Below, piece by piece: positions 1,697 through 5,531 of a DNA stretch of 64,000 nt. Below the pieces are notes generated by a model, which worked only from the letters and a program-made list of their open reading frames with translations, was not told the origin of the DNA and did no database searches. Where the stretch lies: the NCBI RefSeq assembly GCF_057098645.1, contig NZ_CM169472.1. One strand, 5' to 3'. Each line of letters opens with the position of its first letter. Position 1 is the stretch's first letter. The translations under genes and the position numbers were made by a program.

Positions 1697-2491
1697 TTAG
1701 TTTCGCAAGTAGATCCATTCACCATTCTCTTGTGTCCATAAGTCAGGATGGTTTGCTGGCGTTAGATACATACGAGCGCAACTGATGTCTCGCTCCTGCG
1801 GCACTCGCTCGAAACCCAAACCCGAGTAGATTGCGGCTGAACTTGATAAGGAACGCAGACCAATTTTCAAATCATGGGGTAAATCAGAATACGCGTTTAG
1901 CAATGCAGCAATGATGAATCCGAGGGCATTAGAAACGCCTGTAACAGTGCGAAGTTGGTCGATATAAAGATCGATTGTTGGTAGTTCAGATGACCAGCAA
2001 TTAGGCATTTGGGCAGGAAGGGTTACAACGTATCCTATCGTTTGGCCGGTATAGTCTGGAGTACCATAACCAGGTCCCAAAACCACTTCGTGTATTGTGT
2101 ATTTACTGTTGGGTTCGAAGGATTCGACATCTTGCAATAAATATTTCAGTTCTGCGGTTAACCTCGCACCCGCGTAAGCTTTATTGTATTTCTGGGCGTG
2201 AATATTATCTAATGTAGCTTCATGGTTCCATCCAAAAGAATTATCACCATTCATTGTTACTCCATCGTAAGCATTACACTTCTTTGCTAACTTATTGAAT
2301 GCTTGCCAGTCTGAGAGATCTAGTTTGTGGATCTCAACAGTACGTCTGCCATCGCAATTATGATCTCTTCCACGATTTGACAGTAATGTAGCGCGTGCGT
2401 ATTGATGAAATTTTAGTTTTGCTGGTTTGTCGGTGGACGAAAAACGAGGTAAATATGCGGGGAATGAATAAATAGTTGTTGGTAATGTCAT
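1697..2491 (-). CDS. yjfZ: uncharacterized protein YjfZ (DUF2686)
   Basis: 264-aa ORF, AT-rich, matches remembered YjfZ length and position after rplI. Confidence 0.82.
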   Translation of the reverse strand: MTLPTTIYSFPAYLPRFSSTDKPAKLKFHQYARATLLSNRGRDHNCDGRRTVEIHKLDLSDWQAFNKLAKKCNAYDGVTMNGDNSFGWNHEATLDNIHAQKYNKAYAGARLTAELKYLLQDVESFEPNSKYTIHEVVLGPGYGTPDYTGQTIGYVVTLPAQMPNCWSSELPTIDLYIDQLRTVTGVSNALGFIIAALLNAYSDLPHDLKIGLRSLSSSAAIYSGLGFERVPQERDISCARMYLTPANHPDLWTQENGEWIYLRN

Positions 2492-2838
2492 TTTATTGTT
2501 GCCTGTTTAATATTTTTACAAATATCGCAGTTGAATGTTCAAAGAAAAAGAATTGATATTAATAAAAATAAGTTTGTTTTCTGAAGTAGTGAAAATAGCG
2601 GATGGTGAAAGATATTAATATCAAAAATCGCTCATTGTGGATATAACGATGCAGCAGGGGAGAAAATGACTTCCACGCCTTACACCGTACATTCTTGTTG
2701 TGCGGTATGTAATTATTCTACGCTGTCGGTATTGGTGTATTCGTTAATCAGCAGGTTAACCAGCCACAAAAAGCCATTGAGAAAATTATTGATTTTACAT
2801 GGAATTATTATATTGCCAATCCTTGTTTTTTAAAAATT

Positions 2839-3057
2839 GTGCATAGTGAAAATCAAAGTAAAGGTGTGCATTATGCAAAATCACAGCGTCTCTTAGAAAT
2901 TACCCATGCGCACTTGCAGTTAATGGAATCCTTATTGGATGAAGGGAAGAAACACAATATTTTTAAGCCAGATATCGACCCATTTCAGGTGAATATTAAT
3001 ATTGCTGCGCTTGGGGGATATTATTTGATCAACCAGCATACGCTTGGCCTGGTTTAT
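2839..3057 (+). pseudogene. ytfA: ytfA 5' segment (TetR-like C-terminal-domain fragment) interrupted by IS200/IS605 element
   Basis: ORF starts with GTG at 2839; reading frame runs into IS left end; joining 2839..3057 to 4802..4909 restores an uninterrupted 108-codon ORF. Confidence 0.6.
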
Positions 3058-3114
3058 CCGGTGCGCCGTAAAACCCCGTCCTTCAGGGCGGGGATATACG
3101 GCGCGGTTTTCCAC

Positions 3115-3527
3115 CTAACCAGGTGTTTGCTGTTGTTCAATGTATTGACGGATGGCGGATATTGGCGCACCTCCGCAGCTACTGGCAAAATAGCCAGGAC
3201 TCCACAAAACGCCTTTGTAGTAATACCTGACTGCAATATCTGGTCGATCTCGTCGCAGTAACCTACCCGATACGCCTTTGAGGCTGTTTACCAGACTGGA
3301 TATCGCCAGTTTGGGAGGATAGTTAATTAACAAACGTGATCTGGTTCGCCATCCATTTCAACCAGTTCAGCTTCAAAATCAGCACATACCTTTGAAAAGT
3401 AAGTGCGTAGTTTTTCTGTCGCGTCATGGTCAAAAATCTGGCGTCGGTATCTGGTGACAAAGACCAGGTGAACATGCATCAGGAAAACACAATGCCTTCC
3501 ACGCCGGATATCGGTTTCTTTTTTCAC
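3115..3527 (-). pseudogene. tnpA: IS200/IS605 Y1 (HuH) transposase TnpA, frameshifted
   Basis: N-terminal frame (3327..3527) has HVHLVFVTRYRR and ends at EPDHV-stop; C-terminal frame (3115..3333) continues LINYPPKLAISS...LWSPGYF...IRQYIEQQ; frames offset by one nucleotide inside the HuH motif. Confidence 0.75.
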
Positions 3528-3549
3528 AGACCAAAATATAATTTGACCC

Positions 3550-4758
3550 GTGAAACGACTACAGGCATTTAAATTCCAGTTAAGACCCGGTGGTCAACAG
3601 GAGCGTGAAATGAGGCGCTTCGCAGGCGCATGTCGTTTCGTTTTCAATCGTGCTCTGGCGCTTCAGAATGAGAATCATGAGGCCGGTAATAAATACATCC
3701 CTTACGGGAAAATGGCTTCCTGGCTGGTTGAGTGGAAAAATGCCACTGAAACGCAATGGCTTAAAGATGCCCCGTCACAGCCATTGCAACAGTCACTGAA
3801 AGACCTTGAGCGGGCTTACAAAAACTTCTTCCGGAAGCGGGCTGCTTTTCCCCGATTCAAAAAGCGGGGACAGAATGATGCATTCCGCTACCCGCAGGGC
3901 GTTAAGCTCGATCAGGAAAACAGCCGTATTTTTCTGCCGAAACTTGGCTGGATGCGCTACCGGAATAGCCGTCAGGTCACGGGTGTTGTGAAAAATGTCA
4001 CTGTCAGCCAGTCCTGCGGTAAGTGGTACATCAGTATTCAGACTGAAAATGAAGTATCAACTCCGGTTCACCCTTCAGCATTAATGGTCGGACTGGATGC
4101 TGGCGTGGCTAAACTCGCCACGCTGTCAGATGGCACAGTCTTTGGGCCTGTAAACAGTTTTCAGAAAAACCAGAAGACGCTGGCGAGACTTCAGCGACAG
4201 TTAAGCCGCAAGGTCAAATTCAGCAACAACTGGCAGAAGCAGAAACGCAAAATACAGCGACTGCATTCCCGTATCGCAAATATCCGCAGGGACTACCTTC
4301 ATAAAGTCACAACGACCGTCAGCAAAAACCACGCAATGATAGTCATTGAGGATTTGAAGGTCAGCAACATGTCAAAGTCAGCAGCGGGTACGGTCAGCCA
4401 GCCGGGGCGCAATGTCCGGGCAAAATCAGGTTTAAACCGTTCGATACTGGATCAGGGCTGGTATGAAATGCGCCGCCAGCTTGAGTACAAGCAGCTCTGG
4501 CGTGGCGGTCAGGTGCTTGCTGTTCCGCCAGCGTACACAAGCCAGCGTTGCGCGTGCTGTGGTCATACAGCGAAAGAAAATCGCCTGTCACAAAGTAAAT
4601 TCAGATGCCAGGCATGTGGATATACAGCGAACGCTGATGTAAATGGCGCTCGTAACATTTTAGCGGCGGGGCACGCCGTTCTTGCCTGTGGAGAGATGGT
4701 GCAGTCAGGCCGCCCGTTGAAGCAGGAACCCACCGAAATGATTCAGGCGACAGCCTGA
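3550..4758 (+). CDS. tnpB: IS200/IS605 accessory protein TnpB (RuvC-like RNA-guided endonuclease)
   Basis: 402-aa ORF (GTG start); RuvC-I GLDAG (D183), RuvC-II IVIEDL (E267), zinc finger CACCGH...CQACG, Ruv[13 protein letters not shown] (D363) all present. Confidence 0.9.
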
Positions 4759-4817
4759 ACGTAGCAGGGATCCACGTCCTTCAGGGCGTGGAGGATGTCA
4801 ACACATCAGTATGGTTT
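4650..4817 (+). ncRNA. predicted TnpB omega-RNA (right-end element RNA): scaffold overlapping tnpB 3' end and RE hairpin, plus about 16-nt guide from the right flank
   Basis: Inference from family architecture: intact tnpB, RE hairpin 4772..4791, IS end at about 4801; guide would be 4802..4817 (cacatcagtatggttt). 5' boundary is a guess. Confidence 0.35.
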
Positions 4818-4909
4818 CACCCCAGGCACTGGAAGCCAGACGTAAGGTCATCAAAGAGACAATCCTTAGCTGGCTTTTGGTTGACCCGTCATCTACCGCG
4901 CACGAATAA
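4802..4909 (+). pseudogene. ytfA: ytfA 3' segment displaced by the IS insertion
   Basis: 35 codons then TAA at 4907..4909, in frame with 2839..3057 once the IS is removed. Confidence 0.45.
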
Positions 4910-5531
4910 AACTGCCATCCGGCTGGCGGGTGAACAGGACCTGTTGATTATTCCCCGTATCAATGGTTAAGCCCGTCACCACGCCGCTGGCGTTCTGGCG
5001 GATTTTCACCATCTGCCCGTTTTGCAAATTACTCAGCGGCTTACCCGCGCCTTCTACCTGCGCCATTGCATAGACATCGGTAGCGGGCAGTCCGTGGTCG
5101 CGGAACAGCTGCGCCATCGTTTTACCGGGTTCGACACGGTAAGAGCGCCATTGATTATCAATTCCGCTATCTGGCTGGAATGGTTGTGTTTGGGTAGTTT
5201 GCGGCTGCTCTTCTGGCTGGCCTTCCTGTATAGGTTCTGGAGCGACCGGAGCCACCTGATCAGGATCATTTTGTGGTGTGACTAATTGCGCCCGCAGCTG
5301 TTCTTCTGTCGGCGGTTGTGATTGTGACTGAATATCTAACTGCGCTTCACGCGTCACCACCGGCGCGTTGGGCGTATCATCAGATGGAAGCAGAAATCCG
5401 ACCACCAATACAATGGCGGCAATAATGATCCCCCGACGATGCATCGGCGGCAGCGGGTCCATGAAGCGAAAATTGTCCGGCGCGTGCCAGACTTTCTCCA
5501 GGGTTGGTTTTAGTTCAAAGCGCCCGGGCAT
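4893..5531 (-). CDS. ytfB: cell-division-associated OapA-domain protein YtfB
   Basis: ORF 4893..5567; start placed at the internal Met giving 212 aa; Pro/Gln-rich linker and C-terminal OapA/LysM-like region. Confidence 0.82.

Follow-up and report, generated by a model that had tools for sequence, protein, structure and literature searches.

Boundaries and gene content of an IS609 insertion in the ytfA pseudogene of Escherichia coli O145:H28

Introduction

Among the insertion sequences (IS) of the IS200/IS605 family, IS608 of Helicobacter pylori is the reference for single-strand 'peel and paste' transposition. It combines a Y1 HUH transposase (TnpA) with TnpB and inserts 3' of a tetranucleotide without target duplication, features that are shared by the element analysed here. 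This element interrupts the gene ytfA of Escherichia coli O145:H28 in a stretch of 64,000 nt from contig NZ_CM169472.1 (assembly GCF_057098645.1), which is called the window below and to which all positions refer. The segment 3058..4801 is very probably a copy of IS609 that sits, with no target duplication, directly 3' of TTAT in an already dead ytfA, and that carries a dead tnpA and an intact tnpB. IS608 is said to have been described by Barabas et al. 2008 with subterminal hairpins and a right end in which TCAA lies 10 nt after the hairpin, as in the IS609 copy of the window. The two elements differ in their target, TTAT in IS609 and TTAC in IS608, and also in the arrangement of tnpA and tnpB, which are co-directional in IS608 and divergent in IS609. 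The distance between the left cleavage site and the hairpin is 16 nt in the IS609 copy of the window.

A second close counterpart is the IS609 copy of K-12 (NC_000913.3 1503161..1504908, between ydcL and ydcO, with the genes yncK and insQ). Like the copy in the window, it is preceded by TTAT at its left end, has the same ends, encodes a 402-aa TnpB and carries tnpA and tnpB divergently with their starts 7 bp apart. It differs in its site (ydcL-ydcO instead of ytfA), in its length (1748 bp against 1744 bp) and in the lesion of tnpA, an internal TGA stop in K-12 as opposed to a 4-bp deletion and an ATT start in the window. A third system is ISDra2 of Deinococcus radiodurans, whose TnpB has a conserved RuvC aspartate and a zinc finger, like TnpB in the window. 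The logic expected for IS609 is that of ISDra2, where the guide is the flank that follows the right end and the transposon-adjacent motif (TAM) is the target of TnpA (PMC8612924). The TAM of ISDra2 is TTGAT while that presumed for IS609 is TTAT (YTTAT), the two elements arrange their genes differently, and RNA-guided cleavage by IS609 is a prediction only.

Junctions of the insertion and the empty site

3058..4801, + strand: IS609 (IS200/IS605 family), 1744 bp, its top strand on the + strand of the window; assigned by identity, coincident ends and excision that restores the K-12 sequence
3054..3057, + strand: TTAT target motif (TnpA cleavage and target site, presumed TAM of TnpB), kept in the K-12 empty site and found at five IS609 sites

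A preliminary description of the locus had placed the junctions at 3057/3058 and 4801/4802 and had counted a ytfA frame of 73 plus 35 codons. The open reading frame (ORF) starting at GTG 2839 indeed runs for 73 codons up to 3057 and, resumed at 4802, for 35 more up to a TAA at 4907..4909, giving 108 codons plus the stop. In the unexcised window the same frame enters the IS and terminates at 3261 after 140 aa. For a comparison with the empty site, 2658..3057 and 4802..5201 were joined into an excised query of 800 nt that was searched against all complete E. coli genomes. It aligned to K-12 MG1655 in one gap-free alignment (800:800 bases, 98.8% identity, 790/800), the 10 mismatches being all substitutions and the closest of them lying 42 nt off the join. 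The continuity with MG1655 ytfA that had been put forward as a check is thus found, and the K-12 empty site, which reads GGCCTGGTTTATCACATCAGTATGG, equals the predicted join of CTGGTTTAT and CACATCAGTATGG. The restored ORF of the window and the 108-aa ORF of K-12, read from the equivalent GTG, differ by 4 nt and 2 aa.

When 81 shifted joins were tried, the K-12 sequence was reproduced exactly only by 3057/4802 and by the equivalent 3058/4803. The ytfA locus alone therefore leaves the junction ambiguous by 1 nt, because C3058 equals C4802. This ambiguity is settled by other copies of the element: the base that follows TTAT is C at 5/5 independent IS609 sites, while TCAA is followed by different bases (c, t, g, t, c). 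The constant C after TTAT and the variable base after TCAA place the ambiguous C within the element, so that the IS spans 3058..4801.

Identity and ends of the element

The insert is 100% identical to that of about twenty O145 genomes, RM13514 included, and the RefSeq annotation of O145:H28 RM13514 transfers one-to-one to the coordinates of the window. RefSeq classes the insert as IS200/IS605-like, within the IS609 family. None of this is new: the annotation already includes the element, its location in ytfA and the listing of this gene as a pseudogene. Against the feature 'insertion sequence:IS609' of NC_000913.3, the copy in the window shows 97.7% identity with coinciding ends; alignment of both ends gives a shared start, CCGGTG, and a shared end, GATGTCAA. 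No evidence contradicting the identification as IS609 was found.

Five independent IS609 sites were compared, namely ytfA, ydcL-ydcO of K-12, and three more, one beside yedK, one in the interval from yoaG to yeaQ and one within yajI. At all five, TTAT abuts the left end, the final four bases are TCAA and there is no target duplication; the base 5' of TTAT is T or C. The insertion is scarless and motif-dependent (3' of TTAT), as the preliminary description had held. In line with its family, the element is devoid of terminal inverted repeats and has subterminal imperfect hairpins at both ends:

3074..3093, + strand: left-end subterminal imperfect hairpin CCCCGTCC-TTCA-GGGCGGGG, set in by 16 nt from the left boundary (DNA fold z = -4.1)
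4772..4791, + strand: right-end subterminal imperfect hairpin CCACGTCC-TTCA-GGGCGTGG (DNA fold z = -4.3)

Both hairpins are conserved across 11 IS609 copies, each contains a T:G wobble, and one pair is compensatory between the left and the right end. After the right hairpin come 10 nt, the last four of which are the terminal TCAA (4798..4801). An outer left-end stem seen in the fold, 3063..3070 with 3098..3105, was not counted, as it is mismatched in most other copies. AAAA at 3070..3073 could be the DNA guide for TTAT and GGAT at 4768..4771 that for TCAA, an assignment made because of the IS608 'DNA guide' rule and the recognition of the TAM through pairing with a left-end DNA guide (bioRxiv 10.1101/2023.03.14.532601). 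The GC skew is positive in 7/8 bins, which puts the top strand of IS609 on the lagging-strand template, as members of the IS200/IS605 family are expected to be oriented (PMC8612924).

IS609 occupies a second place in O145:H28 genomes, outside the window. The yedK-adjacent copy (E. coli CPEC24103, L006 2211..3858) is a shorter variant of about 1648 bp, in which an internal deletion bounded by two GTGGAG repeats has taken away the tnpB 3' end (387 aa are left) and the right-end hairpin, while the terminal GGATGTCAA is kept.

ytfA as a gene remnant

2764..3057, + strand: 5' fragment of the ytfA pseudogene; tblastn homology starts at 2764, the 108-codon ORF at GTG 2839; pseudogene fragment in RefSeq
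4802..4909, + strand: 3' fragment of the ytfA pseudogene, 35 codons plus TAA (ORF and RefSeq)

Once the IS is removed, the restored ytfA matches the full profile of Pfam TetR_C_29 (1-119, E = 7e-29) and gives no Pfam match to the helix-turn-helix (HTH) domain TetR_N (PF00440). A protein search found relatives of 215 aa that combine TetR_N with TetR_C_29: those of some E. coli are 96% identical, those of Salmonella and Citrobacter 80-84%. One of these, P0006 of E. coli GCA_024384905.1, which has Salmonella orthologues, is a TetR/AcrR regulator whose residues 83-215 show 96% identity with the restored ytfA and whose gene has the same position beside ytfB-fklB-cycA. In tblastn, residues 83-215 of this intact allele align from 2764 straight over the join, and residues 1-82 find no homology in 2300..3057 of the window. 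At its locus, the intact allele is accompanied by a divergent cluster that is headed by a short-chain dehydrogenase (SDR) gene and continues with AP_endonuc_2 and enoyl-CoA hydratase genes. The window and K-12 lack both the TetR_N HTH and this cluster, save for a 106-bp SDR remnant. Compared with the intact locus, the window is short of 545 bp that comprise the 5' end of the SDR gene, the intergenic region and ytfA codons 1-82. The SDR remnant, at 2654..2759, is 81% identical to its counterpart; the adjoining part of ytfA is 98.5% identical.

Of a TetR-family regulator of 215 aa, ytfA thus keeps, by homology, the last 133 codons; the HTH half has been deleted together with the divergent operon, in agreement with the earlier view of a TetR C-terminal remnant. 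The 108-aa length given for K-12 YtfA also holds, since the K-12 ORF is UniProt YTFA_ECOLI ('putative pseudogene'); to this it can be added that the current K-12 record gives ytfA (b4205) as a pseudogene of 402 nt (133 codons) whose start precedes the GTG by 75 nt. The truncation is also present in K-12, which has no IS at this site and lists the gene as a pseudogene, and IS609 therefore hit an already dead gene. Since the intact 215-aa allele and the Salmonella orthologues are continuous across the join, the empty state is the ancestral one. The 3' end of ytfA overlaps the 3' end of the convergent ytfB by 17 nt (4893..4909). The result carries little weight outside record-keeping; it fixes the exact boundaries of IS609 in the O145:H28 window, within a gene already dead when interrupted.

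Decay of tnpA

3115..3542, - strand: tnpA (Y1 HUH transposase) pseudogene; Pfam Y1_Tnp on both halves, 'frameshifted' in RefSeq

Two lesions affect the transposase gene. Aligned with K-12 yncK, it shows a 4-bp (TCCA) deletion at 3334/3335 that turns the HUH motif DHVHLL into DHVC-stop, and its start codon (3540..3542) is ATT where intact alleles, for example that of O157:H7, have ATG. The intact O157:H7 allele at the same site (WP_000604943.1) scores 146 bits against NCBIfam transpos_IS200 (cut-off 55). With the start codon gone and the HUH motif broken by the deletion, tnpA of the window is dead, and this copy has lost the ability to transpose by itself. Other tnpA copies at the ytfA site carry different lesions (an internal stop, a 1-bp frameshift, a lost stop codon), and the O157:H7 copy is the only one of those examined that is intact.

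The genes tnpA and tnpB stand back to back with their starts 7 bp apart. The substitutions that kill the tnpA start create a perfect TATAAT on the + strand at 3537..3542, 7 nt ahead of the GTG of tnpB. The same tnpA-start variant is found at ytfA in strain 99_0288 and at yajI in strain Z226-1, and this sharing hints at conversion between copies or at a leaderless tnpB transcript.

tnpB and the presumed omega-RNA

3550..4758, + strand: tnpB (insQ-like RNA-guided endonuclease), intact, 402 aa; Pfam, NCBIfam and alignment with ISDra2
4631..4801 (approximate), + strand: presumed scaffold of the omega-RNA (reRNA), which takes in the 3' end of tnpB as well as the right end
4802..4817, + strand: flank as predicted 16-nt omega-RNA guide (CACATCAGTATGGTTT), by the mechanism of ISDra2 and Geobacillus TnpB

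In TnpB the Pfam domains HTH_OrfB_IS605, OrfB_IS605 and Cas12f1-like_TNB are all recognized, and the protein scores 389 bits against NCBIfam guided_TnpB (cut-off 100). It aligns over nearly its full length with the ISDra2 TnpB structures (E = 5e-55), so that D183 stands opposite the catalytic D191 of ISDra2, with E267 and D363 also in place. The latter two are assigned as the other members of the RuvC D-E-D triad from the alignment and from the residues E278 and D361 of ISDra2. The zinc-finger cysteines C334, C337, C353 and C356 are present, with the CxxC...CxxC pattern aligned with ISDra2. A scan for sigma-70 promoters and terminators returned no convincing promoter for tnpB.

For the omega-RNA, Rfam gave two matches below threshold, both to families of RNAs associated with TnpB and both lying at the expected place on the correct strand and ending at the right end: HgcC at 4695..4814 (E = 0.014; 23.5 bits against a gathering score of 50) and sot0042 at 4631..4792 (E = 0.14; 17.5 bits against 88). 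The RNA fold of the region is modest (z = -2.3). TTAT and the predicted guide flank would together form the donor-joint target present in empty ytfA alleles, as in the K-12 sequence. The flank is polymorphic over 4802..4821 (CACATC...TTTCACC, CATATC...TTTCCCC and a mixed form), in occupied as well as empty alleles (L003, L013, L015-L017). The right end of the IS lies 92 bp from the ytfB stop, and read-out from tnpB or the omega-RNA would run antisense to the 3' end of ytfB.

Across 11 copies, tnpB is intact in 10/11 and has a pN/pS of about 0.27, whereas tnpA is intact in 2/11 and evolves almost neutrally with a pN/pS of about 0.79; the sample is small (the window, L004, L007-L009 and L012-L017) and its pairs are not independent. 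This difference suggests that selection retains the nuclease gene as the transposase gene decays, a pattern that agrees with the general TnpB literature.

Distribution among E. coli genomes

A left-junction probe of 200 nt, with at least 80% of it covered, found the insertion in 1744/5426 complete E. coli genomes (about 32%), O157:H7 included; that this count equals the length of the IS in bp is a coincidence. The uninterrupted ytfA site is present in 3281 complete genomes. Occupied and empty alleles (1744 and 3281 complete genomes, respectively) thus form a clean natural contrast, suited to tests in E. coli of excision by IS609 TnpA or of homing by its TnpB. The junctions and orientation of the window recur at six other occupied loci, taken from diverse strains (7/7 in all). 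The IS609 copies at ytfA differ from each other by 0.6-2.4% and from copies at other sites by 1.9-2.6%. Since the ytfA-site copies differ about as much from one another as from those elsewhere, the insertion may be old, or recurrent, or homogenised by conversion.

Proposed mechanism and alternative explanations

By transfer of the mechanism described for IS608, ISDra2 and Geobacillus elements (PMC8612924; bioRxiv 10.1101/2023.03.14.532601), the Y1 HUH TnpA would have released the top strand as a single-stranded circle and pasted it 3' of TTAT on the lagging-strand template. TnpB with its omega-RNA, the guide being transcribed from the flank CACATCAGTATGGTTT, would then cleave the empty TTAT-CACATC... 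allele, and recombination following cleavage would restore the element and favour its retention. Precise excision of the window copy by TnpA would leave CTGGTTTATCACATCAG across ytfA. Several points weigh against this account. A permissive E-value search of 2400..5400 against Rfam returned no family above its gathering score and only weak matches to HgcC, sot0042 and RAGATH-18. The last 150-230 nt of the element are not more conserved than the rest among the 11 copies, with 7-8% variable columns against 5% in the tnpB body. A literature search on IS609 and InsQ/TnpB yielded, besides inventory mentions, only a study of mutation-accumulation lines of K-12 in which no transposition of IS609 occurred (PMC5009759), and no functional study of IS609 TnpB or its omega-RNA. 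TnpB of H. pylori IS608 was inactive in an assay (bioRxiv 10.1101/2023.03.14.532601), so intact motifs are no proof of activity. The further claim that ytfA::IS609 persists at about 32% because an intact TnpB with a ytfA-flank RNA guide cuts incoming or sister empty alleles is regarded as improbable. If true, it would make ytfA::IS609 a site-locked selfish allele that outlasts its own transposase.

The boundaries themselves leave little room for dispute. Were the true ends of the element elsewhere, restoration of the ytfA frame would be a coincidence, a reading in favour of which nothing can be named except the 1-nt ambiguity (C3058 = C4802). It was rejected with near certainty on the shifted-join test, in which just two equivalent joins of 81 yield the K-12 sequence, on the K-12 empty site, on the 3281 genomes that hold the uninterrupted sequence and on the independent IS609 copies that have exactly these ends. 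The state of ytfA before the insertion could be questioned in another way, as the restored ORF has no stop within its 108 codons and was for a long time annotated as YtfA, and a functional 108-aa protein in the ancestor of this strain might have been inactivated by IS609. The TetR homology, however, reaches 75 nt upstream of the GTG and ends at the deletion breakpoint, the HTH-coding sequence is gone, Pfam recognizes the C-terminal domain only, K-12 is equally truncated without the IS, and both UniProt and RefSeq list a pseudogene; a functional ytfA is therefore held to be very unlikely.

More weight can be given to a repeated origin, in which ytfA::IS609 does not go back to a single old insertion passed on vertically or through recombination. 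Instead, TnpA would have inserted the element several times at this TTAT, or TnpB would have driven its copying into empty alleles, and some empty alleles would be secondary precise excisions. The mutual divergence of the ytfA-site copies, as large as that from copies elsewhere, speaks for it, as do three strains whose flanks are nearly identical (0.2%) and whose IS copies differ by 1.1-1.4%, the presence of both CAC and CAT flank variants in occupied and empty alleles, and the tnpA-start variant common to copies at ytfA and yajI. Nevertheless, all seven occupied loci examined have the same junction and orientation, tnpA is dead in most copies, IS609 is immobile in laboratory lines, and gene conversion between IS609 copies combined with ordinary recombination of the flanks would give an equal pattern. 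Recurrence is on balance a possible but rather unlikely origin of the allele.

Other features of the window

Apart from the insertion, the segment 48001..56000 stands out by its GC content of 0.46, against 0.49-0.53 elsewhere in the window. It holds ridA, pyrBI, yjgH, bdcA, bdcR and tabA, as well as a hypothetical protein of 555 aa at about 52668..54335.

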